A DNA stretch of 64,000 nucleotides, taken from positions 3,330 to 67,329 of IMG/VR virus record IMGVR_UViG_3300030397_000226, one strand, 5' to 3'. The position numbers were made by a program, and so were the translations under genes. Position 1 is the first letter of the stretch. Each line of letters starts with the position of its first letter. Positions 20,149 to 63,935 of the stretch are shown one piece after another. Source of the DNA: a virus. The notes under the pieces were generated by a model. It saw only the letters and a list, made by a program, of their open reading frames with translations, was not told the DNA's origin and made no database searches.

Positions 20149-20409
20149 ATGAATGCAGTGAAGGGGCTCTTCGGGAGCCGGAAAGCGACGGTCGTCATCG
20201 TCCTCAACGTGGCGGTCTTCGTCCTCTATGGGATGGGGAAGATTTCGTGGAACGATGCCAGTGAGTTCGTCAAGTGGCTCGATTCCGTCTGGATGGGCGC
20301 TCACGCCTGGGAGCAGGGTCAGCTGGCCCGAGCGAAGGCGGTGGTCGATGGAGCCAAGGAGACGGCGGCTCAGGCCAAGCAACTCGTCGAGGAGCGTACA
20401 GAGGAGTAG
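20149..20409 (+). CDS. Holin-like small membrane protein
   Basis: 86 aa; GSRKATVVIVLNVAVFVLYGMG hydrophobic segment, charged C-terminus; last gene of the structural operon. Confidence 0.55.
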   Translation: MNAVKGLFGSRKATVVIVLNVAVFVLYGMGKISWNDASEFVKWLDSVWMGAHAWEQGQLARAKAVVDGAKETAAQAKQLVEERTEE

Positions 20410-20442
20410 GGACGCCATCTGACCTTCTCGGTCGCCCTCGCG

Positions 20443-20475
20443 CCCTCGGTTCTTTCGGGAACCGGGGGTTTTTTC
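20443..20475 (+). terminator. Rho-independent terminator
   Basis: CCCTCGGTTCT-TTCG-GGAACCGGGGG followed by TTTTTTCTT. Confidence 0.85.
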
Positions 20476-26403: not shown

Positions 26404-27414
26404 ATGCAATACAAGACTGTAGCAATGCAGAAAGTCTTCGACCGTCTAGGGCTGATGTCGGAGCGCAATGAGGATGTGATGGTCAAGGGCTCTGACTTTC
26501 AGTTCCTCCCCAACGGCACAGTGAAGTTACCCGACCTCGGTATCTTCTCTTTCACTGATTGGTCCTTCTCTCAGCTCTGCACGAAGCTGAAGGTCCCGAC
26601 TGACTTTGCGAAGCGTTCTCCGAAGGGCGAAGGAGCGGCTTCTCGCAAATGCATTCTCGACCACTGGAAGGAACGCACAATGGACGATAAGACTTGGCTC
26701 TTTAGGGTTAAGTTGAACAAGGACAAGGATGAGGAGTCTGGAAGCGTGGGCCGCGTCCGAGCTGTACTCAGCGACAAGTACTCCATCTACGACAATCTCG
26801 ACTTTGTGAATCTGCTGTCACCCATCATCAAACGCGAGAAGATGGTGATTCAGATGGGGAACGTCACCGACCAATCGTTCCATATGAGGGCGCTCTACGA
26901 AGAGACGGTGAACGTCAAGCCCGCCAAGGATGCGAAGGTGGGAGATGTTCACAGTGTGGGAGTTCACTTCGCCAACAGCGAGGTGGGTTCTCGCAATATC
27001 TCAGGCGACTTCTGCGTGTTTCGACTCGTCTGTACGAATGGGATGATTGGCTCCCCAGAGCATGAGCACCTTTTCTACAAGCGACACATCAACCTTGAGA
27101 AACACGAGATGCACAACGTGGTCATCGCCGGAATGGAGCAATCCCAGATGGTGAAGATGGGCGCGATTGACCAACTTGAGGAGTCTGCCAAAAAGAAGAT
27201 TGTCTCTGTGCCAGAGGAACTTCGTCGGTACCTCACGGGTCAACCCAAGATGTCCAACGAGATTCTCGACAAGTGCGTGAAGGCGTACGAAACGGAACCG
27301 TTCCAGTCCAAGTACGGGGTCATCCAAGCAATGACCCGTGCGGCGCAGGGACTGCCTATCGAGCAGCGTGTGTCATTGGAAGAACTGGCGGGACGGTACC
27401 TCTACGCTGCATAA
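26404..27414 (+). CDS. DUF932-family protein
   Basis: RVRAVLSDKYSIYDN, HFANSEVG, FRLVCTNGMI, SKYGVIQAMTRAAQ. Confidence 0.8.
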   Translation: MQYKTVAMQKVFDRLGLMSERNEDVMVKGSDFQFLPNGTVKLPDLGIFSFTDWSFSQLCTKLKVPTDFAKRSPKGEGAASRKCILDHWKERTMDDKTWLFRVKLNKDKDEESGSVGRVRAVLSDKYSIYDNLDFVNLLSPIIKREKMVIQMGNVTDQSFHMRALYEETVNVKPAKDAKVGDVHSVGVHFANSEVGSRNISGDFCVFRLVCTNGMIGSPEHEHLFYKRHINLEKHEMHNVVIAGMEQSQMVKMGAIDQLEESAKKKIVSVPEELRRYLTGQPKMSNEILDKCVKAYETEPFQSKYGVIQAMTRAAQGLPIEQRVSLEELAGRYLYAA

Positions 27415-27420
27415 CACTCT

Positions 27421-27539
27421 GAGCCCCACTTCCTCGGTCGGTAACCCTCTGGTTGTCCCAGGTGCGAGTCCGAGGTTCGCTCCGTTTCCCTTCCCCCTAG
27501 TACCTCGGTCGGGATAACATCCCGGGGAAGTGGTGGCTC
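27421..27539 (+). ncRNA. Candidate structured RNA / leader upstream of dnaB (element C)
   Basis: GAGCCCCACTTCCTCGG pairs with CCGGGGAAGTGGTGGCTC; inner CCGAGGT/ACCTCGG stem with a pyrimidine loop. Confidence 0.5.
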
Positions 27540-27561: not shown

Positions 27562-28827
27562 ATGTCTATCGACGTTGAAGTTGCTCTGTTGACCAAGATT
27601 ATCGAGACTGAAGACTTGAGGTCTGTCGTCCGGTCGAAGGTCACTCCCTCGTTCTTTTTGGATGAGGATGCTCGCGACATCTTCGAGTACATGGCTGAAG
27701 TGTACCAGAAGCGCGGGAGGATTCCTTCTCTTAGTCTGCTCCAAAATGAGTACCCTGACTTTGAGCCTGAGGAGTCCGACGACGACATCCTTCTTTTGAT
27801 TGATGCTGTCAAAGACAAGAAGCTCTATGCGGACCTACAGCGTACGTTGTCCAAGGTCGCGGATGAGACGCGAGGAGACCCAACTGAGGGGCTTGCCGCA
27901 TTGAAGAAGATGAGTGTGCAACTCGCTTCGATTCACTCGACAGGTGAAGACCTCGACCTCACCAAGTGTGGCGATGACCTTCGAGCGGAACTGGAGAAGC
28001 TGAAGAACACGGAAGGCACATTGGGTATCCCGTGGCCTTGGGAGGCGTTGAATCGTGCGACTCTCGGAATCCACCTCGGCGAGTTCATCGCGTTCTACGC
28101 TCGACCCAAGTCGATGAAGACATGGGTGATGCTCTACGTCGCGTACTGGATATGGAAACAGACAGGGAAGTCGATTCTGTTTCTGACCAAGGAGATGACG
28201 CCCGAGCAGATTCGACGACGTTGGGCAGCAATGGCGTGCGAGTTGGAGTACAGCGCGTTTCGTGAAGGCCGCCTCAATGAGGATGAGGAGATTCGTTTCC
28301 ACGACTTCCTCGACCAAATCGAGGACGAAGGCGAGGCACCGTTCATCGTGTCGACAGTTGAGGAGCAAGGCGCTCCAGCGTTGACGGAGATTCAGGCGAA
28401 GATTGAGGACTTTCAAGCGGACATGGTGTTCGTGGACGGGCTCTACTTTCTCGCTGAGGACCCGAGCTGGAAGTCGTTCACGGTCATCACTCGTGGACTT
28501 AAACAGCTCGCCCAGCAGAAGAAGGTCGCCATCATTGGGACAACCCAGGCGAACCGTTCTGCGGAGAAGGGACGAGGAGCACTCAGTGAGGTGGCCTTCG
28601 GTGACTCCCTCGCAATGGACGTTGACGTACTCATTCGAATCATTAGGGAAGGACAACACAGGGACAACAACGAACTGTTGATGACTCTCCCGGCGTTGCG
28701 TGAGGCTCACGGCTGCACGTTCACTATCAACGCTCTCCCAGCTCACGACTTCACTCAGAAACATGAGTTCGAACAGGAAGAGGGAAGCGAAGCACTTAAC
28801 AGCACAGACGACGGAGCGATTCTATGA
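27562..28827 (+). CDS. dnaB: DnaB-like replicative helicase
   Basis: GIPWPWEALNRAT.G, YARPKSMKT Walker A, LFLTKEM, VFVDGLY, TTQANR, FGDSLAMDVD. Confidence 0.85.
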   Translation: MSIDVEVALLTKIIETEDLRSVVRSKVTPSFFLDEDARDIFEYMAEVYQKRGRIPSLSLLQNEYPDFEPEESDDDILLLIDAVKDKKLYADLQRTLSKVADETRGDPTEGLAALKKMSVQLASIHSTGEDLDLTKCGDDLRAELEKLKNTEGTLGIPWPWEALNRATLGIHLGEFIAFYARPKSMKTWVMLYVAYWIWKQTGKSILFLTKEMTPEQIRRRWAAMACELEYSAFREGRLNEDEEIRFHDFLDQIEDEGEAPFIVSTVEEQGAPALTEIQAKIEDFQADMVFVDGLYFLAEDPSWKSFTVITRGLKQLAQQKKVAIIGTTQANRSAEKGRGALSEVAFGDSLAMDVDVLIRIIREGQHRDNNELLMTLPALREAHGCTFTINALPAHDFTQKHEFEQEEGSEALNSTDDGAIL

Positions 28828-29485: not shown

Positions 29486-29516
29486 ACATAATCAATAGAT
29501 TGAAAAAGGAAACAAC

Positions 29517-29849
29517 ATGAGCACATCAAAAAAGAAGCCAGTAATTCGTCAGGGAGACAAAGCAGCATTCGTGCGGAGTCTACCGTTCAGCACGCCAGCG
29601 AGCGAGGTCCGTGACCTTGCCAAAAAGAAGGGGATGATTATCTCCAAGGCGTACATCCACAATATTCGGTCGGCGGCGAATAAGGCGTCCCGTGTCGTCA
29701 TGAAGAAGGCCGGAAAGAAGACCCTCAAAGGCAAGCGGTCCACGCTGGAGAACAAATTCAAGGAGCTGGTGGTGACCCTCGGTCCTGCGCGAGCGAAGAA
29801 GCTCCTCACGCAGACGGAGACGGCTCTCTCGTTGGAGGCGCAACGATGA
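29517..29849 (+). CDS. Basic putative DNA-binding protein
   Basis: Lys-rich; AAGGAAACAACATG leader. Confidence 0.55.
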   Translation: MSTSKKKPVIRQGDKAAFVRSLPFSTPASEVRDLAKKKGMIISKAYIHNIRSAANKASRVVMKKAGKKTLKGKRSTLENKFKELVVTLGPARAKKLLTQTETALSLEAQR

Positions 29850-32678: not shown

Positions 32679-32685
32679 CTGAATG

Positions 32686-32711
32686 GGGGCGGGCAACCGC
32701 CCCTGTTTTTT
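32686..32711 (+). terminator. Rho-independent terminator
   Basis: GGGGCGG-GCAA-CCGCCCC followed by TGTTTTTT. Confidence 0.85.
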
Positions 32712-32733
32712 CAAACTAGGGAAAAGGGAAACA

Positions 32734-36662: not shown

Positions 36663-36950
36663 ATGACACAACCAGCAGCTCCTCCTCCCCTCTTCCCTCT
36701 GAAGCTCTTCGGGGAAAAGTACTTCATCAAATCAGATGCGGTGCTGGGCGCTTTCGCATTGGAGAATCTGGCCGCACGAGGGGGCACCGTCTTCCTCGAC
36801 ACAATCAAGAGGTTTCATCTCACGTTCGTTGTGTACGACCCTGAGAACGACTTTCAGCCCACGCATCTCGTCGCGAACGGCGAATGGAAAGGGCCTGCTG
36901 TTCCTAGGGCTGTCAAAAAGAAGACCTCTAAAAAGACAAGGCGAAAGTGA
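36663..36950 (+). CDS. Hypothetical protein
   Basis: 95 aa, basic C-terminus, coupled to next gene. Confidence 0.5.
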   Translation: MTQPAAPPPLFPLKLFGEKYFIKSDAVLGAFALENLAARGGTVFLDTIKRFHLTFVVYDPENDFQPTHLVANGEWKGPAVPRAVKKKTSKKTRRK

Positions 36951-37366
36951 CCCAGTACGCACCACCCACTGGAATAGCCTGGTGGCGCGTCTCGTACCTG
37001 GGAGTACTCGATGAATTCAACCGACCCAAGTTCATCGGGTACTTCTACGGGAAGACCGCCTTCCAGGTCGGCAACAAAGCGGTGTCGCACATTCGTCGCG
37101 AGAAGATGTTCTACGTCGAAGGGTCGCCGGTCATCGCACACTGGAGCGCGTTCGACACCAAGATGGTGTGGGACACGGGAATGAAGGAGGAGGAGTTCAA
37201 TGCGAAAAGGGAGGCTGCTGGGTCGGTCATCGAACCGCTCGGCGCAGAAGCGTTTGGAGAACTCCAGAAAACAGGAGAACCGACTGGCGGACTCATCAAA
37301 CGGAAGAAGGCAGCCAGGAAGCGGAAATCAGTGGCACAGCAAGGGGGACGTAAAGGGAAAAAGTAA
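36947..37366 (+). CDS. Hypothetical protein (3' end overlaps resolvase gene)
   Basis: GTG overlapping upstream stop; globular-looking N-terminal 90 aa. Confidence 0.5.
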   Translation: MTQYAPPTGIAWWRVSYLGVLDEFNRPKFIGYFYGKTAFQVGNKAVSHIRREKMFYVEGSPVIAHWSAFDTKMVWDTGMKEEEFNAKREAAGSVIEPLGAEAFGELQKTGEPTGGLIKRKKAARKRKSVAQQGGRKGKK

Positions 37367-37854: not shown

Positions 37855-38179
37855 CAAGAAGTCTTCCAAGCGAATCACCAAAACGCCGTCTCAGTTGAAG
37901 ATGGCCCAAGCTCAACGACTCATTGGCTCTGAGTGTGATGCGGTGAAGGACCTTCTCATCGAGAAGAATAAGGCGTACGGGAACTCGTTTGCGGAACCCA
38001 TTGGCATCTTCGCGAAGGGGCTTGAGCCAAAGTCTCAGATTCGTGTGAGAATCGATGACAAGTTGACGCGGCTCAAAAAGGGGAGCGAGTATCCTGGTGA
38101 TGACACGGTTCTGGACCTCATCGGATATTTGGTACTCTACCGCGTGGCTCAACGCATGGAGGAAGAAGATGGAAAGTGA
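37841..38179 (+). CDS. Nucleotide modification associated domain 1 (DUF1599-like)
   Basis: DLLIEKNKAYGNS....VRIDDKLTRL......DDTVLDLIGYLVL. Confidence 0.8.
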   Translation: MAKGNKKSSKRITKTPSQLKMAQAQRLIGSECDAVKDLLIEKNKAYGNSFAEPIGIFAKGLEPKSQIRVRIDDKLTRLKKGSEYPGDDTVLDLIGYLVLYRVAQRMEEEDGK

Positions 38180-39161
38180 CATCGACCTCAGTGATGGCCA
38201 CGAGATTACCTCGTTGAACCTCACAGACGGGAACAATCCGATGGTGACCATTCACTCGAATGGCCACTTCTCTGCGTTCGGCAAGGACTACACTCAGGAC
38301 GGCGACAAGTTCGGGATGCGTCTTTATGAAGCACTTCACTTGTTTCTGAAGACGGGCTGCCCTGTTCTCGGCGCGGAACTCCTCGACCACGGGTACCTCA
38401 AACTCGTGGAGACGTGGGGCTCCGATGAACGCATCATCGAAGCCGCCCGTATGTCGACAGACAGTTCGTTCCACGGATGGGACCCGTACTACCAATGCAA
38501 GAACTGCCGCGCCGTTTGGCACGACGTGGAAGGTCAAGAGGTTCCCGACGGAGTGTGCGCTCAGAACTACGGAGGACCCTGTTCGTGGCAGTACAAACCG
38601 AAAGGTGATGAGGGACTGCTCTCGTATCTCTACAACCACAACCACGCGACTCCCTTTGAGATGGGTGGTGCGATTTTTGAGGTACAGGCTCCCATCTTCG
38701 TCTTCCGGGAGTGGCACCGTCACCGAACTCAGTCGTACAACGAGCTGAGTGCTCGCTACACTGACCTTCCTGCTCTGTACTACGTTCCCACAAAGGAACG
38801 TCTCTTGATGAACACGAGGACTAAGAACAAGCAGGCGGGAACGAAAGACGGCACGGAGCTGACCGAAGATGGCGCGGACTTCTTCATCGACACTCTGACG
38901 AAGCAGTACGAGAACTGTGAGAACATCTACCAAGGCGCGATGGATTCCGGCGTCCCCAAGGAGTTGGCTCGCTGCATCATGCCTGTTGGTCACTACACCC
39001 GAATGCGAGCGAGCGCGAACCTACGAAACTGGCTCGCCTTCATGACGCTTCGTTCTGCCCCCAACGCTCAGTGGGAGATTCGTCAGTACTCTGACGTCAT
39101 CAACGGACTGCTCACCTCGAAGTTCCCTCGTACAATGGAGTTGTTCAATGCCCAGACCTGA
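38169..39161 (+). CDS. thyX: FAD-dependent thymidylate synthase
   Basis: HATPFE, APIFVFREWHRHRTQSYNELSARY (RHRx7S), ELARCIMP, NLRNWLAFMTLR...AQWEIR. Confidence 0.95.
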   Translation: MESDIDLSDGHEITSLNLTDGNNPMVTIHSNGHFSAFGKDYTQDGDKFGMRLYEALHLFLKTGCPVLGAELLDHGYLKLVETWGSDERIIEAARMSTDSSFHGWDPYYQCKNCRAVWHDVEGQEVPDGVCAQNYGGPCSWQYKPKGDEGLLSYLYNHNHATPFEMGGAIFEVQAPIFVFREWHRHRTQSYNELSARYTDLPALYYVPTKERLLMNTRTKNKQAGTKDGTELTEDGADFFIDTLTKQYENCENIYQGAMDSGVPKELARCIMPVGHYTRMRASANLRNWLAFMTLRSAPNAQWEIRQYSDVINGLLTSKFPRTMELFNAQT

Positions 39162-39369: not shown

Positions 39370-39713
39370 CAGCACACGCAGGTGAGCCTGTTTTCGACGA
39401 CCCTCATCTCTTCATGTTCGCGATTGCGGGAAAGACTCGCGATGAGGCTCGCAAAGCTCTCAAGCGCGTGGTTCAGGAGAAGGGGTATCACGAGAGTCAG
39501 TGGGACGAGATTCCCCCTAATGAAAAGGTTCTTTACGACAGAGCGTTTGTCGCGACCCGAGATATGGTTCGTGGCAACGCCTGGAGTTTCAAGGTGGATG
39601 AGAAAGAGCCCTACTCTATCGACGTCATCAATCAGATGAAGCAGACGATTCGCCGAATCATCTTCGTTGTCCGGTTGAAGGAAGCGAAGGGGCGTCACGA
39701 TGTCCATAGTTGA
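39366..39713 (+). CDS. Hypothetical protein
   Basis: GTGA-coupled ORF, 115 aa. Confidence 0.5.
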   Translation: MTAHAGEPVFDDPHLFMFAIAGKTRDEARKALKRVVQEKGYHESQWDEIPPNEKVLYDRAFVATRDMVRGNAWSFKVDEKEPYSIDVINQMKQTIRRIIFVVRLKEAKGRHDVHS

Positions 39714-40506
39714 GAAGGTGCGCAAAAAGAAAGTACTCAAAAAGCGCATCAAGAAGAAGGTCGTGAAGAAGACGCGGCCAGTGGTGAGGGAGAATCCGAA
39801 GGTGATTGCTCCTCCCCCGAGCGTCATCGGAATCATCGACGACGTAATCGAGGCAGACAAGGAAGTCGTTCGTTTCTTTCGGCCGTCCATGTTTCATGGG
39901 TGTCCGAGGGCGAACGTCTTTCACCACGTCATGGCTCCTCGCCACCCACAGCGAATCACCAACCGTCTACGTCGAATCCTCGACAACGGGAGCGCGGTTC
40001 ACGAGTGGGTGCAGGAGCACTACCTCTCTCGCCACCTCAAGTACTGGTTCATCAAAGAACCGAAGGTGCTCGCCAAAATCAACGGAGCCTATGTGCGCGG
40101 CTCCTGCGACGGTGTGTTCATCCGACGGAGCGACGGGTACCGATTCGGTATCGAGTTCAAAACGATTGGCCACACCTACTTCGAGCGACTCACGAAGCCG
40201 AAGCCCGAACACGTTCTTCAGGCGCGCATCTACATGCGACTCCAGAAGCTCGACTACATCGTCATCGTCTATTGGGACAAAGACAAGCAGTTCTTAAAGG
40301 AGTTCCCAGTCAAGGCTGACGATGCGGAATGGAAGAAAATCACCCAGCGAGTGAAGAAATTCAAAGGGTACGCGGACAAGTACGACGCTGCGAAGAACGA
40401 CCGCGATAGGGCCAAGGCTTTGCCTGTGTACAACCGTAAGGTTTGCGACCCCGACTTCTGTACATACACTGACTACTGCAAGAAGATGGGGGCTCCGCTC
40501 CCGTAA
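39700..40506 (+). CDS. Cas4/RecB-like PD-(D/E)XK exonuclease with probable Fe-S cysteines
   Basis: PSMFHGCPR, GSCDG...IEFKT, QARIYM, C-terminal CDPDFCTYTDYC (1+3 Cys layout). Confidence 0.85.
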   Translation: MSIVEKVRKKKVLKKRIKKKVVKKTRPVVRENPKVIAPPPSVIGIIDDVIEADKEVVRFFRPSMFHGCPRANVFHHVMAPRHPQRITNRLRRILDNGSAVHEWVQEHYLSRHLKYWFIKEPKVLAKINGAYVRGSCDGVFIRRSDGYRFGIEFKTIGHTYFERLTKPKPEHVLQARIYMRLQKLDYIVIVYWDKDKQFLKEFPVKADDAEWKKITQRVKKFKGYADKYDAAKNDRDRAKALPVYNRKVCDPDFCTYTDYCKKMGAPLP

Positions 40507-40977: not shown

Positions 40978-41184
40978 ATGACCATGCTAGTTGCATTTTT
41001 GAAGTTCATGGTGGGGATTGCCCCCGACATGTACGGCACCGTCAAGCACGCTCTTCGTGAGTGGAAAGAGCTAGATGACGCCAAAACGGAAGAACTCATC
41101 AAGGAAATTGAGCCCGCTGATTGGGGCGCAGTGGACAAAAAGGTCGACAACAAGGTAGACTCCCTGGACATCCCCGAGGAATAG
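40978..41184 (+). CDS. Hypothetical small protein
   Basis: AGGAGG leader; hydrophobic N-terminus. Confidence 0.55.
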   Translation: MTMLVAFLKFMVGIAPDMYGTVKHALREWKELDDAKTEELIKEIEPADWGAVDKKVDNKVDSLDIPEE

Positions 41185-41224
41185 CCCATCTTAGGGGAGC
41201 AACAGGTTGGTATTTGCCCGGAAT

Positions 41225-41284
41225 GGGGTGGGTGGTTCAGTTAGCGTTTTTGTTGTTTCCTTCGTTCGCTGAACCGCCCGCCTC
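41225..41284 (+). ncRNA. Candidate small RNA hairpin with anti-RBS loop (element A)
   Basis: 16-bp stem GGGGTGGGTGGTTCAG/CTGAACCGCCCGCCTC; loop TTTTTGTTGTTTCCTT. Confidence 0.5.
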
Positions 41285-41320
41285 GCTCTCTTCCAACTAG
41301 ACACAACAACAGACACAGCA

Positions 41321-41536
41321 ATGGCTAACTCAAACCTCAAGCGAGATAAGCGCATCGAAATCTGGCGCGGTAACTGGAACGCAATGTACGGCGCTCGACC
41401 CGAGCCCACTCGACGCGAAGACGGTTCACTCGTCATGTCTCCCAGCGTTCCGATGAACAACCCCGATGGGACTCCGATGACGCGCAAGCAACGTCGCAAG
41501 GTTTGGCGTGAGTCGAGAAAGTTGGCGCGGTCATGA
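41321..41536 (+). CDS. Hypothetical basic protein
   Basis: 71 aa; A/C-rich leader with no clear SD. Confidence 0.5.
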   Translation: MANSNLKRDKRIEIWRGNWNAMYGARPEPTRREDGSLVMSPSVPMNNPDGTPMTRKQRRKVWRESRKLARS

Positions 41537-42713: not shown

Positions 42714-43207
42714 TGGCGAAAGCGTCACGGGACAAAGGGAAGAGAGGAGAACGCTGGCTAGCTACCAAACTGCGTGAATGGTTCCCCGAGTTCGCGAAGA
42801 GCATCGTACGAGGTCGGCAGTCTCGTGGGGCATCCAATGATGAACAGGACGTAAAATTTCCACTCATTTGGTGGGAGATGAAGTCCGGTAAGAAGCAGAA
42901 TCCACGCGCAGCGCTGGCCCAGGCGATTGAAGACGTAGCGACGAATGGAGGGGAGAAGATTCCCGTGGCCTGTGTCAAAGACGACAGGAAAGACGCATTC
43001 GTGGTTCTCCTATTGGATGACTTTTTGTTCCTACTCAAAGATGGGAACATGAAAGCCTTAAAGAAGGCTTACAGAAAGGAAACAACAGATGGCAGACGTA
43101 ACAAAGTATTACGAGATGGCGGCGGACGGGAAGTTCTATCTCGTCCTGGAGGACGAAGATGGAAACCCCGTATACGAGCCAGCCGACGAAAGTCTAAATC
43201 TCGTTGA
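42710..43207 (+). CDS. Holliday junction resolvase-like nuclease 2 (Hjc-type)
   Basis: SRDKGKRGER.LA..L, DV......EMKSGK, C-terminal VVLLLDDFLFLLK. Confidence 0.8.
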   Translation: MMAKASRDKGKRGERWLATKLREWFPEFAKSIVRGRQSRGASNDEQDVKFPLIWWEMKSGKKQNPRAALAQAIEDVATNGGEKIPVACVKDDRKDAFVVLLLDDFLFLLKDGNMKALKKAYRKETTDGRRNKVLRDGGGREVLSRPGGRRWKPRIRASRRKSKSR

Positions 43208-47313: not shown

Positions 47314-47342
47314 TTGACATTGACACGTCACAGTGACACAAT
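47314..47342 (+). promoter_or_regulatory. Sigma70-like promoter
   Basis: TTGACA-N17-CACAAT; spacer contains TGACAC-GTCA dyad. Confidence 0.65.
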
Positions 47343-47355
47343 GAACGAACTTACT

Positions 47356-47410
47356 GAATCCCGATTGACTGGTTTTGTTGTCCCTTTCCAGGCTTTCGGG
47401 ATTCGTTTTT
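47356..47410 (+). ncRNA. Candidate small RNA / leader hairpin with anti-RBS-like loop (element B)
   Basis: GAATCCCGA/TCGGGATTC and CTGG/CCAG stems; loop TTTTGTTGTCCCTTT; followed by GTTTTT. Confidence 0.5.
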
Positions 47411-49811: not shown

Positions 49812-50294
49812 ATGGCCGTCAAAAAGAAGACGGCGGCGAAGAAAACGGGAGCTGCGAAAGCGGCTCCCTCTTCGTCGTCTAAGAAGAAGGTAACCAAGAA
49901 GAAAGTGACCAAAAAGGTCACGAAGAAAAAGGCAACCGCTAAGAAGGCGGCCAAGAAGACCACCAAGAAAAAGAAGAAGGCCAAAAAGAAGCCTTTGACC
50001 TTGGCGGACAAGCAGGCACGTCGTCTCATCGAACAAGCACCGGAACGTGACGAGGAGCATGAGCTTCCGAAACACATTTATCCGGGTGCTCGCGTCAAGG
50101 TGTTCTACGAGGGTGAGGACACCGAGGCGATTGTGGAGTTCGTCCATGAAACGAAGGACATCTTCATGCTCAAGTCCCTCAAGGACAAGAGTCACTTCGC
50201 CTGTGCGGAGCGGTACATCAAACCACTCAAGACGGCGAAGAAGAAAGTTCTGAAGAAGCGAACCAAGAAGGCTTCGAAGAAGAGCGAAGAGTGA
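49812..50294 (+). CDS. Histone H1-like protein with small SH3/KOW-like C-terminal domain
   Basis: KKVTKK repeats, then IYPGARVKVFYEG....AIVEFV. Confidence 0.7.
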   Translation: MAVKKKTAAKKTGAAKAAPSSSSKKKVTKKKVTKKVTKKKATAKKAAKKTTKKKKKAKKKPLTLADKQARRLIEQAPERDEEHELPKHIYPGARVKVFYEGEDTEAIVEFVHETKDIFMLKSLKDKSHFACAERYIKPLKTAKKKVLKKRTKKASKKSEE

Positions 50295-50301
50295 TTCGAC
50301 G

Positions 50302-50340
50302 GGCTCCGGGGATGGCGACGTCCTCGGGGCCTTCTCACTT
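50302..50340 (+). terminator. Probable terminator hairpin
   Basis: GGCTCCGGGGA/TCCTCGGGGCC stem followed by TTCTCACTT. Confidence 0.45.
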
Positions 50341-58038: not shown

Positions 58039-59799
58039 ATGGCTTATCAGACGTTACTTAGTTTCTGGGACAAGGAGAGCGGCTTCGTCCGTGTCTTCGA
58101 AAGCGTTGGCAGCGACACGTTCGAACTCCGAGACTCCAAGGGTCTGGTGCGGATATGTTGCATGTCCCATCACGACATCATCACTTGGCAGCTCTTCGTC
58201 AAAGACGAGACGTGGGGAGAGGACGCGGCGGACCCTCAAGACCTCGACGTCGATGGAGCACTCCTTCAGGCCCATGCGGTGCTCGACACTGATGTGAGCG
58301 TGGCGGAAAAGACGCGAGAGGCTCTCGGTGCTCCTCCTGAGAAGAAGACACTCAAGTTGAGGTCGTCATGATTGTGGAGGCGATTGAAGATGCACTCTTT
58401 TTGTTCGCACTCTGTGCGCCACTGGCAGCGTACATCGTGAAGGTGTTCCTATGAAACGAAGAACAGCACTCCAGTCCATTCTCGCACTCTCTGCCATACC
58501 TGCGGTTCCTCCCGTCATTGGGAAGATGGGACCAATCGGTGAACCAGTGAAGTGTTTGAGTATGGCAGACATCCAAAACGCTGTGCGTCAGCTTGAGGAG
58601 AACAACGTTCCACCATCTCCCGATGGGATGTACACGTTGGTTGTCCCAGGCTCGCTCTATGCGTCTCCTGTGGTGGGTAACTGCCACATCATCCCTTACG
58701 ACTACCCCAACGAAGACTGATGACTTACGAATCACTAGAAGAGATTGAGGTTGACGGAAAGACCTACAGCATTCTGGCACAATGCCAAGGGTGGATGCTG
58801 GTCCGAGACATGGACGGTATGGAACAGTATGTTGGCCCCAAGGACGCTGACCCTGCTGACTGTCCCGTCACCGAACTGATGGAGAGGAGAGGCGAGCGAT
58901 GACAGATGAACAGATAATCCGAGCGGTGATTGGCCTCACCATGTTGGTCGCAGGCTTCGGTCTGGGAGTGACTTATTGTTTCTTTCGATTTGAGCGGCGA
59001 CTCAAAAAGCACTTACCAGAGAAGGAGCATCTCGTGGTTGCTCCGGTGCCTTCTCCTAAGCGGACGTTCTGTCCGAGGTGCGGGAATACAGTTGACCTTA
59101 AAGACTGCGACAAATGCGGATGGAAGCAACCCGATGACGTCCAAGGCTAGTCAACTTGCCTTTAATAAGTCCGACTTCGTAGCGATTAGTGAGGACTTGA
59201 AAGCGCGAGGGAAAAACATCTCACCTCAGCAAGTGGAGGCAGCGTGGCGGCAAATGGTTCGGCACGCACGAAATATGACTCCTGAGCAAGTTGAGGAAAT
59301 GAAGAAACGGGTCGTCGATGACGTAATGAATCGATTGAAAGAGAAAGGAATACTGAAATGAAGGTGCAATCTAAAGTTTTACCAACACCGGCCAACAACG
59401 GTGAACCTGAGTCTACTGTCGAATTGTCTGAACTCTATTCGGGCATGAGCATCAAAACTGAGAATGGCGTGTTCCACGTCTGCGAACGAGATGGTGGGCT
59501 GGAAATCTGCTTCAACGGTGGACGCTGGTATAGGTGGGTGAGTGCGTCTGGTCCTGAGCCTATCCCTTTCGGCGACCACCTACCCAAGGCGGAAGAACCA
59601 GACGGACAAAATGGAGGGTGAGCCTCTCTCCTACAAACGAGGGTTCCGTCGGCTGCATTGGGATAAGCGTGGTCGACGAATAGCGCGGTTCGTAGACGGT
59701 AGCGTGTGGCGAGAGACATGGAACCGTGACCCAACACCATATCGAAGGCGAATTACCTTGGAATGGGAGTGTATTCATCCACCCAAAGAAGTGATATAA
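58039..59799 (+). other. Array of small coupled hypothetical ORFs: 58039-58371, 58368-58454, 58451-58720, 58720-58902, 58899-59150, 59134-59361, 59358-59621, 59611-59799
   Basis: Head-to-tail ATGA/TGATG coupling; 58899 has a TM segment plus CPRC/CDKC. Confidence 0.55.
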
Positions 59800-61161: not shown

Positions 61162-63935
61162 TGGACCCTTGGGAGGAACTACTCAACGAATACGCAGATG
61201 CTCAACGTCTGGGCGACGTTGTGCTGGTAGTATCTGGGAGCCGATTTGGGGGCGTGGCATTGCTCGGTTCCGAAGAGAATCAACTCATTGCGTACCATGT
61301 GATGACAATGGCAGGAGTTCCTCCTGAGCAGAAGAGATGACAAAATGAGCGACGACAATGAGAACAACGTAGTTTCGTTAGACTCAGCCAGGCCACACAT
61401 GCGAGGTCCGGCGAAGTGTTTGAACTGTGACCACGAATGGGAGGCTGTTGACCTCGTTGGTTCTCAGATTCTCGAATGTCCCGAGTGTGGTTTAGACAAA
61501 GGAATCTGGGCAGCTCTCAATCTTCCCAAGGAGGGCGACCTCGTTTGGACGTGTAACGGATGTGATGGAATCTACTTCTTTCGCGTCTCTGGTGAAGGAT
61601 GGATGTGCGCAACCTGCGGTCTGACGCAGGAAGGCGTTCATGACGATTGACAAAATAAAAGGAAACAACATGGAAGACCTAGAAACGAAAAAAGTACCTG
61701 GCGGTAGGGCGGTTGAGCTGAGTGACAACATCGACTTTGCGGTCATTCGATTGGGTAACACATATCGACTCTGCTTCACTGACCGAGACGATGACACGCT
61801 CATCAATGAACCTGACTTGGGTAAGGCTGACTTGTCCAAAGTGTCTCGTTTCATCGAGTACATGAGGACGCTCTGATGCCTAGGGAAGAGTTGTGGGAGT
61901 TCAAGGTACGTCTGGGCGAGGCGTGCGGACATGAAGAGGTCGCTAAGGTTTTGCGAGAGCTGTTCGACCACACCGGGGAGGTAGAGGAGTGCAGCAATGC
62001 TACTTCATTCAACGACTTCGACAAGAACCTGAACATCTGCGTGATGGATAGGGAGTAGCGATGTTTGGTAACCCAAAGCACATCTTCGTCGATTATCCCG
62101 GCATCCTCCGACACAGTGAGTGGCCAAAAGAGTCGTTTCAGAGGAGTCTCGCGAACGTGAAAGAAGTGATGAATCCAAATCCCTGCACTAATGATGGTCC
62201 TTTTGTTGTGGAACACTTCGTTCACGATGAGTGGCATTGTCGTCAGGTCAACTGCGCTATGGGAGGAGAGTTCAACACCAAACTTGCGGAGTTGATGAAG
62301 TTTCAGCCGTATCAACTTGAGATTCTGAAGAGCCGCGACCCGGCCCGCTCGCACTCCTTTTCCCTTCCGCGAGAATTTTTTGGACCATTGAAGGAGTGAC
62401 ACAATGAGTAGCGACTATAAGGACCATAAGGACGCGAAGCCTCTCACTGTGCTGGTGAGCGAAGGACTTCAGGGGGACGTGGTGAAAGACGAACCTCTGA
62501 ACGTCATTGACGACAGGACGGCTGCACAGAAGAGGGAGGCGAACACTGCGTGGAAGTACTACTCGAATCAGCCGTTCCGAATGTTTGCGGACAAGATTCT
62601 GGAATATGCGAGAACCCTTGGGTACAGCGATGACGAATTAGAGCAGGTCTTTGAGGCTGCGCGAGAGAAGCGAAAGCGCGACTCTGAGAACTTTCAGACG
62701 TTCAAACGAGAATGGGGTGCGGATGCGGTCATTGGTGTAGATGAGGGCAAGGGGCCTGATGAGAGCGTCGAGGTGAGACTCTATCCACACAGTTGGAGTA
62801 GGAGCGAACATCACCAAGGGTGGGAATGTAACCGTTGTGGCGAGTTCTTTTCTGAGTTCGATGCTTCAGCAAACGGGATGAGGCCCGAGTTCGGGTGTAA
62901 GGACCACTGATGGCGAAACCGACTTTTGATGAACTTTTGGAGCGAAGCAGTTTGGGTACTCCTGAAGTGAAGGCTGCCCGAGCGAGCGTTTCAGATGAAC
63001 AGGTACAGCGAGTACTGCGAAGAGCGGATGAGTTGAGCGCCGAAAAGAAAGGAAACAATAAGATGGATGTGTGGACAAACGATATTGACTGGTTCGTGGC
63101 TGAGAGCGAGGAGCACGCTCGCAAGATTCAACATGAGATGGGTTGCGAGGACCAAGACGAGGAGTGGAGGAAGGAACCGGACGACCTCGTGCTCAGCTCT
63201 CACTACATTGATGGCTGGTATGCGGGAGGGGAACAGCGTCCCTACCCCAAGTGGGTGGACGACGAGGCTGAGGCGCGTGCTGAGAAGTTCGATGCTGAGG
63301 TGAGTGATGAGGAAGCGACCTACGTTGTGTGGGCTCCCTGTTGGATGTGGGCCAAGTACGAAACGGGTTGTTTCAGGAGTACCGAGATATGAAGTGTAGA
63401 GGGTGTGGAATCTGGTTCGTGGGGATGGAGGCTGAGCGTTGTCGTGAATGTTCGACCGTTCACAGTTTCAAACTCTACTGTGTGGGTGTGCTAATCATTG
63501 CAGTCAATTTGGCAATTGCGACTGCGTTTAAGGTGTGGGGATGAAACGGAACGTGAAACTGAAGAGGCAGCTTCGTAGGAAGGTTGCTGAACACAAGAAG
63601 ACCATCATGTTGTGGAGAGGGACTCACTACGTCTGGGAGCGGTACAGTTCGTTGGCCCGCCATCAGATTCGACATGCGAAACACAGGATTGGGAAACTGG
63701 AAGCGATGGCGTCCAGGTTGTAGGGGACAATATGATTCGATTGTTTTGTAGGCACGACTGGGAAGTGCGAGTGAAAACGAAAGCCTCTCCATTGGAGTCA
63801 ATCAGGGGAGGCGACCCTAGGTTCGTTCGTGAAGCGATTGAGGCGATGAATGGCTCCACGTCTGTGGTCATGACCTGCAAGAAGTGTGGGAAGGTCACAA
63901 CACAGACCCTACCAGGGATAGAGATGACGAAATGA
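61161..63935 (+). other. Array of small hypothetical ORFs: 61161-61340, 61345-61650 (Zn ribbons), 61670-61876, 61876-62058, 62061-62399, 62404-62910, 62910-63392, 63389-63544, 63541-63723, 63732-63935
   Basis: Coupled co-oriented ORFs with SD sequences; several CxxC motifs; a further ORF starts at 63932 and runs off the window. Confidence 0.55.

Follow-up and report, generated by a model that had tools for sequence, protein, structure and literature searches.

Genes and features around the hairpin

The window, that is, the whole 64,000-nt stretch of DNA that was analysed, comprises bases 3330 to 67329 of a linear IMG/VR virus record of 69,555 bp with an estimated completeness of 74%. All credible genes in the window are carried by the + strand and are closely packed; no tRNA or tmRNA gene was found in the window, and the phage possesses 7-deazaguanine genes. 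Searching 50,697 phage records by megablast and blastn gave no DNA match to the window, and the polA protein is less than 30% identical to that of any phage on record. By these sequence comparisons, the phage has no close cultured relative. The hairpin studied here, element A, is surrounded by a replication/recombination block with the following features.

38097–39161, + strand: gene for a ThyX-like protein
39700–40506, + strand: gene for a Cas4/PD-(D/E)xK exonuclease
Between the exonuclease gene and the gap, + strand: a 147-aa gene, then a 68-aa gene
41185–41320: gap of 136 nt between the 68-aa gene and ORF71, holding element A
41205–41296, + strand: possible extension of the helix by GGUUGG/CCAACU and GGA/UCU, with internal loops, in the minimum-free-energy fold of the whole gap
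41224–41246, + strand: 5′ arm of element A, G-rich, pairing with 41263–41285 in 22 of 23 positions
41247–41262, + strand: loop of element A (loop A), 16 nt, unpaired, TTTTTGTTGTTTCCTT / UUUUUGUUGUUUCCUU; 41251–41262 is the exact complement of AAGGAAACAACA
41263–41285, + strand: 3′ arm of element A, C-rich, with the tail CTCTCTTCCA and no U-tract
41303–41313, + strand: CA-rich stretch of the ORF71 leader, 8–18 nt before the AUG, which can pair with loop A
41321–41536, + strand: ORF71, an Arg/Lys/Trp-rich orphan gene; its stop codon and the start codon of the gene that follows overlap as ATGA
3′ of ORF71, + strand: a 115-aa and a 163-aa gene, then genes for a SpoVS-like protein, RusA and a 193-aa protein

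U-tract terminators of the phage are located at 20440–20475, 32683–32712 and 47356–47410; each contains five to seven T in a row, if a single interrupting C or G is allowed in the first two. The terminator at 32683–32712 is canonical (GGGGGCGGGCAACCGCCCC then TGTTTTTT) and lies directly 3′ of the stop codon of the preceding gene; polA probably starts at ATG 32734 behind AAAAGGGAAAC rather than at 32683. The positions of the terminators suggest that a single long transcription unit extends from polA to about 47410, with element A in its middle. A survey of sigma-70-like promoters returned too few sites for defining transcription units. GC-rich intergenic hairpins are also present at 50303–50340 (GGGCUCCGGGGAU...GUCCUCGGGGCC, 3′ of a gene ending at 50294 and followed by a weak U tail) and at 20162–20180 (GGGGCUCUUCGGGAGCC).

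In the preliminary description of this DNA, element A was given a stem of 16 bp. The stem in fact has 22 pairs in 23 positions, comprising 16 Watson–Crick pairs, six G·U pairs and one U×C (1×1) mismatch, and is the longest on either strand of the whole 69,555-bp record. Element A also ranks in the top six 80-nt windows by stability. The + strand RNA folds at −39.5 kcal/mol (z = −6.34), with none of 200 dinucleotide shuffles being as stable, and the − strand reaches only −21.7 kcal/mol (z = −1.18). The + strand folds and the − strand does not because six of the seven non-Watson–Crick positions of the stem are G·U when read on the + strand, for which we calculated P ~1e-4 if mismatches are random. 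This bias points to selection on the + strand RNA or on single-stranded + DNA, and speaks against selection on a palindrome in the DNA or on a transcript from the − strand. Outside the stem, another fold of the region predicts a different outer helix from the extension at 41205–41296. The second-longest stem of the genome (36997–37049; 20 pairs, loop CAACCGACCCA, −24 kcal/mol) is found within the coding sequence of a 139-aa gene (36947–37366).

The loop of element A is one of only four + strand windows of 16 nt in which T occurs 11 times or more, and opening it costs 0.18 kcal/mol. A 16-nt fully open loop is typical of pairing loops and atypical of a plain terminator or stabiliser. The stem is GC-rich, as in an intrinsic terminator, but it is followed by CUCUCUUCCA in place of a U-tract, and the loop is far from the short apical loop (about 3–8 nt) of such terminators; on these features element A is not a canonical terminator. 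No convincing promoter for a separate sRNA was found: the only candidate, a weak TGGACA-N18-TAGACT, lies within the gene upstream, and the scanned region holds three promoter-like sites against 3.4 expected. No Rfam family reached its gathering score anywhere in the window, and lowering the threshold to E values of up to 10 on 41150–41350 gave only chance matches to generic miRNA-precursor models and EcpR1 and none to C4. A 21-codon upstream ORF (41207–41272) behind GGGGAG and a − strand ORF (41499–41191) were rejected, as neither has a coding signal. Origin of the gap and ORF71 by duplication was likewise rejected; the rest of the genome is similar to them only by chance words.

It is possible that element A is a purely structural intercistronic hairpin, acting as an RNase III processing site and/or as a barrier to 3′ exonucleases, and that the complementarity described below is incidental. 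Bacterial RNase III requires a helix of about two turns (at least about 20 bp of near-continuous double-stranded RNA), a length that the near-perfect helix, with 22 pairs and a single 1×1 mismatch, reaches. The hairpin is intergenic, lies in a long same-strand operon bounded by the U-tract terminators at 32683–32712 and 47356–47410, and folds specifically on the + strand; moreover, intercistronic stabilising or processing hairpins are common, which gives this explanation a high prior. Such a hairpin would set different stabilities for the polA-to-68-aa and the ORF71-to-RusA parts of the transcript, as the sites in T7 early mRNA do. It would, however, leave the 16-nt open loop unexplained, since stabilisers and terminators usually have loops of 3–8 nt.

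ORF71 scores as coding in its own frame (+0.26, against −0.43 and −0.55 off frame), and its product is a small basic protein with both termini rich in Arg and Trp. Protein searches, including 1.84 billion cluster representatives and the ESM Atlas, found no homologue; the sole match among the 1.84 billion proteins was rejected as an artefact of a 12-fold tandem repeat. The gene was said to have a leader lacking a Shine–Dalgarno (SD) sequence, and we agree: ORF71 has no SD and its leader is CA-rich. The ACAACAA of this leader, placed at 41293 in the preliminary description, is actually at 41303–41309.

Pairing of the loop with this leader had been put forward as a pseudoknot, and a cis translational switch could work in this way, the loop pairing with 41305–41313 and thereby masking or organising the ribosome landing site of ORF71. 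The best cis pairing, between 41249–41257 of the loop and 41305–41313, has 9 bp including one G·U (−8.5 kcal/mol) and stops 8 nt short of the AUG; opening the leader site costs only 0.93 kcal/mol, the gene has no SD, and by a geometric estimate a linker of 19 nt could be long enough to bridge the 22-bp stem. The pseudoknot is thus geometrically possible, but its nine pairs are weak and A-U rich, close to the genome-wide mean for duplexes with the loop (−6.5 to −7.1 kcal/mol, sd 2.6), and it has no other support. Searches at E values of up to 10 gave no match of element A or element B (described below) to a curated model of riboswitch or H-type pseudoknot leaders such as preQ1. We therefore consider a cis switch very improbable.

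Complementarity between the loop and ribosome-binding sites

The loop had been described as antisense to a sequence at several gene starts, and this holds: AAGGAAACAACA, hereafter the tag, is matched exactly at 29506, 43076 and 61659 and with one mismatch (10 nt) at 63049. An ATG follows every + strand copy of the tag within 0–3 nt. The sites are as follows.

29506–29517, + strand: tag AAGGAAACAACA; its final A begins the ATG (29517) from which a 110-aa gene is translated; firm ribosome-binding site
43076–43087, + strand: tag AAGGAAACAACA; 1 nt before the ATG (43089) of the conserved 193-aa gene; firm ribosome-binding site
61659–61670, + strand: tag AAGGAAACAACA; ends in the A of an ATG; the gene starts at 61670 or, in frame, at 61640
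63049–63060, + strand: near-tag AAGGAAACAATA; 2 nt before ATG 63063, which may be internal to an ORF from 62910

That the tag covers the SD and spacer, as the preliminary description had it for all these sites, is well founded for the ribosome-binding sites at 29506 and 43076, but the copies at 61659 and 63049 may be inside longer ORFs. The start at 43089 agrees with alignments of orthologues, which have different ribosome sites. No U-tract terminator is present in the 1.8 kb between loop A and its complement at 43089, and the 193-aa gene is probably on the transcript of the hairpin, 1.8 kb downstream. In frame with the possible ORFs from 61640 and 62910, the tag reads K-G-N-N-(K)-M (61659–61672 and 63049–63065), and the coding score of 62910–63062 is weakly positive. 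The 61659 and 63049 sites may represent internal initiation or mis-called starts.

The reverse complement of AAGGAAACAACA is found in loop A only. Tag and anti-tag together give five matches against 0.44 expected, a number reached in none of 100 shuffles, and at least three 12-nt sites were obtained for 0.4% of composition-matched loop permutations (P ~0.004, a post hoc value, as the hairpin was picked for this property). Among the repeated 11-mers beside start codons, AAGGAAACAACA is the sole tag whose reverse complement is fully unpaired in a strong hairpin. The strand specificity of the fold, the accessibility of the loop, its exact complementarity to the tag and the excess of matches over chance are thus computed properties of this genome. 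Genome-wide, exact complementarity of 11 nt between any start region and any + strand site is at chance level (47 sites vs. about 43 expected).

The 12-bp duplex of loop and tag has a predicted energy of −14.9 kcal/mol, or up to −17.9 kcal/mol with flanks, whereas the generic 16S tail binds the tagged sites more weakly (−6 to −10 kcal/mol); opening the targets costs 0.7–2.0 kcal/mol. Shorter forms of the tag (AAAGGAAAC) precede dnaB at 27562 and the genes at 26404 and 65253, suggesting that the tag is an extended form of the ribosome-site style preferred by the phage. Regarding the earlier suggestion of a trans-acting sRNA, the capacity for pairing is supported by the energetics and by the permutation value (P ~0.004), but a separate sRNA is not, given the lack of a convincing promoter, a U-tract and conservation.

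A candidate fourth element (58971–58985), T-rich and complementary over 11 nt to the variant tag of 63063, was rejected: it shows no fold signal, and the stretch codes for part of a transmembrane helix. The gene concerned (58900–59361) probably starts at ATG 58900 (ATGA overlap, SD GGAGAGGAG), and its N-terminal transmembrane helix includes 58971–58985.

Elements B and C and related phages

Element C (27484–27500, GTTTCCCTTCCCCCTAG) is part of a multi-stem element before dnaB and is complementary in 15 of 17 positions to the polA ribosome site (32716–32732, CTAGGGAAAAGGGAAAC). This duplex is the best that the stretch can form in the window (−26.8 kcal/mol vs. a mean of −7.6, sd 3.9), and the polA site is its only other match with three or fewer mismatches (0.13 expected). 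As a second and independent match, it raises confidence that the pattern is not due to chance. The purely structural explanation of element A accounts neither for this parallel case nor for the exact 12-nt match of the loop to a tag repeated three times. We regard it as unlikely on its own, although it is the main rival, and an antisense role would remain compatible with it.

Element B is a hairpin at 47356–47404, with a 17-position stem unrelated to that of element A, a 15-nt loop (UUUUGUUGUCCCUUU) and a U5 tract. Loop B has no exact target, and comparison of its region with Rfam at E values of up to 10 returned nothing beyond generic hairpin models. Upstream of it is a strong promoter-like sequence, TTGACA-N17-CACAAT with an extended-10 TG, which the hairpin follows about 13 nt later (47314–47410). 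A promoter followed by a terminator-like hairpin could either produce an RNA of about 60 nt or control read-through before the charged-protein operon.

The likeness of loops A and B, which both contain UUUUGUUGU and agree at 12 of 15 positions although their stems are unrelated, raises the possibility that element A is an operator for a phage RNA-binding protein, for example the ORF71 product, serving autoregulation or antitermination with element B as a second site, by a logic like that of lambda N with boxB or of the coat-protein operator hairpins of RNA phages. The ORF71 product is small, basic and Arg/Trp-rich and arrived together with the hairpin, and element B directly follows the strong promoter-like site. 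The likeness of the loops, however, is marginal once their U-rich composition is taken into account (P ~0.04–0.05), ORF71 has neither a recognisable RNA-binding domain nor a homologue, the idea draws on composition alone, and the exact complementarity to the tag is left unexplained. A protein operator is, in our estimation, improbable.

The exonuclease has 27 homologues among 5.8 billion proteins, the best of which is 56% identical, so there is no sister phage in the data. Comparison was made with three IMG/VR relatives at about 50% identity by exonuclease alignment. In one (L004), the homologue of the 68-aa gene directly overlaps the start of the homologue of the 115-aa gene (GTGA), without a gap or ORF71; in another (L005), the equivalent genes adjoin, and neither gap nor ORF71 is present. 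The hairpin and ORF71 are therefore missing at the homologous junction in at least two of the three relatives, the third having no detectable homologues of the flanking genes. These absences suggest that the hairpin and ORF71 are a lineage-specific insertion or were lost in the other phages. The three relatives showed no enrichment of the loop motif, no comparable hairpin with a pyrimidine loop and no tag/anti-tag pair, and searching viral contigs and metagenome contigs with the loop-plus-stem pattern gave no match in either. A look-alike hairpin with G-rich and C-rich arms in G001 was rejected because it lies within a proline-rich coding region. In relative G002 (L004:5729–6156), a gene with a lipoprotein-like signal peptide start (MKKWISIFALSSALSGC) lies between the exonuclease gene and the 68-aa homologue and occupies the place of the 147-aa gene of the window.

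With an element that is lineage-specific and unconserved, in a genome where chance complementarities of 11 nt are plentiful, one may ask whether it has any specific function, or whether the hairpin is a relic of the ORF71 insertion and the loop match is fortuitous. The G·U bias of the stem, its stability (z of −6.3), the triple 12-nt match and the tight packing of the genome argue against this, and we give the idea little credence.

Proposed mechanism and comparison with known systems

Taking these data together, we tentatively favour, at somewhat less than an even chance, the reading that element A is an operon-embedded RNA with an anti-ribosome-site loop that represses the tagged genes. In the operon RNA of the + strand, the 22-bp stem would display the fully open, U/C-rich 16-nt loop, which would pair with the private tag AAGGAAACAACA from the SD across the spacer up to and including the first base of the AUG. 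The regulated starts would be those of the 110-aa gene (29517) and the 193-aa gene (43089) and probably also 61670 and 63063. Pairing would block binding of the 30S subunit and expose duplex RNA to RNase III, so that expression of the tagged gene set would be lowered once the operon bearing the hairpin is transcribed. We infer that the hairpin RNA accumulates, either within the mRNA or as a processed fragment, and RNase III processing may release or stabilise it, which is compatible with the antisense role. Pairing in the cell and its repressive outcome are likewise inferred.

Against the antisense reading, a full 12-bp helix in a closed 16-nt loop needs strain, the three relatives revealed no conservation or covariation, and two of the four targets are insecure. 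Trans, long-range cis and purely structural roles are indistinguishable by sequence alone. A broader proposal, which we put forward with slightly more reserve, is that of a private regulon, in which a 12-nt ribosome-site tag marks a subset of genes and one operon-embedded loop silences them all, element C acting likewise on polA. If the pairing is functional, a class of phage genes would be timed by a few dozen RNA bases and not by a protein such as T4 RegB or RegA. A ribosome-binding site with a private extension would then mark the members of the class, temporal classes could be predicted from sequence in uncultured phages, and the tag/anti-tag pair would be a compact, portable device for synthetic control of translation. 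As a single instance without relatives, the present case is by itself weak evidence for such a system.

The early mRNA of T7 carries intergenic RNase III hairpins whose apical loops are small and whose stems contain an internal loop where cleavage occurs. Like these sites, element A is a long stem, about two helical turns in length, between genes of a polycistronic phage transcript; no antisense role is known for the T7 sites.

Small RNAs with CU-rich or UCCC loops directed against SD sequences include LhrC of Listeria and RNAIII, RsaE and SprD of S. aureus, and their contact sites are loops, terminator loops included (PMC4132741). Element A shares with them an unpaired pyrimidine loop with a UCC core and a U run, complementary to the purine-rich SD regions of several targets, and a block of translation initiation would be the expected outcome in both cases. 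These sRNAs have their own promoter and terminator, whereas element A is embedded in an operon without either, and its targets would be the phage's own genes. It also differs from their short generic SD seed in its exact 12-nt pairing with a private tag, which extends through the spacer to the AUG, and it has no sequence or structural homology to them (no Rfam match).

In the icaR mRNA of S. aureus, a UCCCCUG motif of the 3′-UTR pairs with that mRNA's own SD, blocking initiation and creating a substrate for RNase III (PMC3868564). As in icaR, the anti-SD motif of element A is in an untranslated part of an mRNA, and the site at 43089 is probably in the same transcript, 1.8 kb downstream. In contrast to the self-regulation of icaR, one loop would serve three or four sites, at least one of which (29517), and probably three, are in other transcription units, and the motif is presented on a 22-bp stem.

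The c4 antisense RNA of P1 and P7, from the immI operon, pairs with the region of the downstream icd ribosome site and so shuts off downstream genes (Citron and Schuster 1990, cited in PMC8198154). Both c4 and element A are phage-encoded RNAs with exposed sequences; c4 has its target in its own operon, and the loop of element A is complementary to the 43089 ribosome site, which is probably on the same transcript. Element A has one loop in place of two pairing segments, several dispersed targets, no immunity context and no match to the Rfam C4 model.

Because it lacks an Rfam match as well as its own promoter and terminator, and because it would recognise a private 12-nt tag instead of a generic SD seed, element A is best regarded as a member of none of these groups. 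In its predicted function, it resembles the pairing loops of LhrC, RNAIII and RsaE, the anti-SD motif of icaR mRNA and the c4 RNA of P1.
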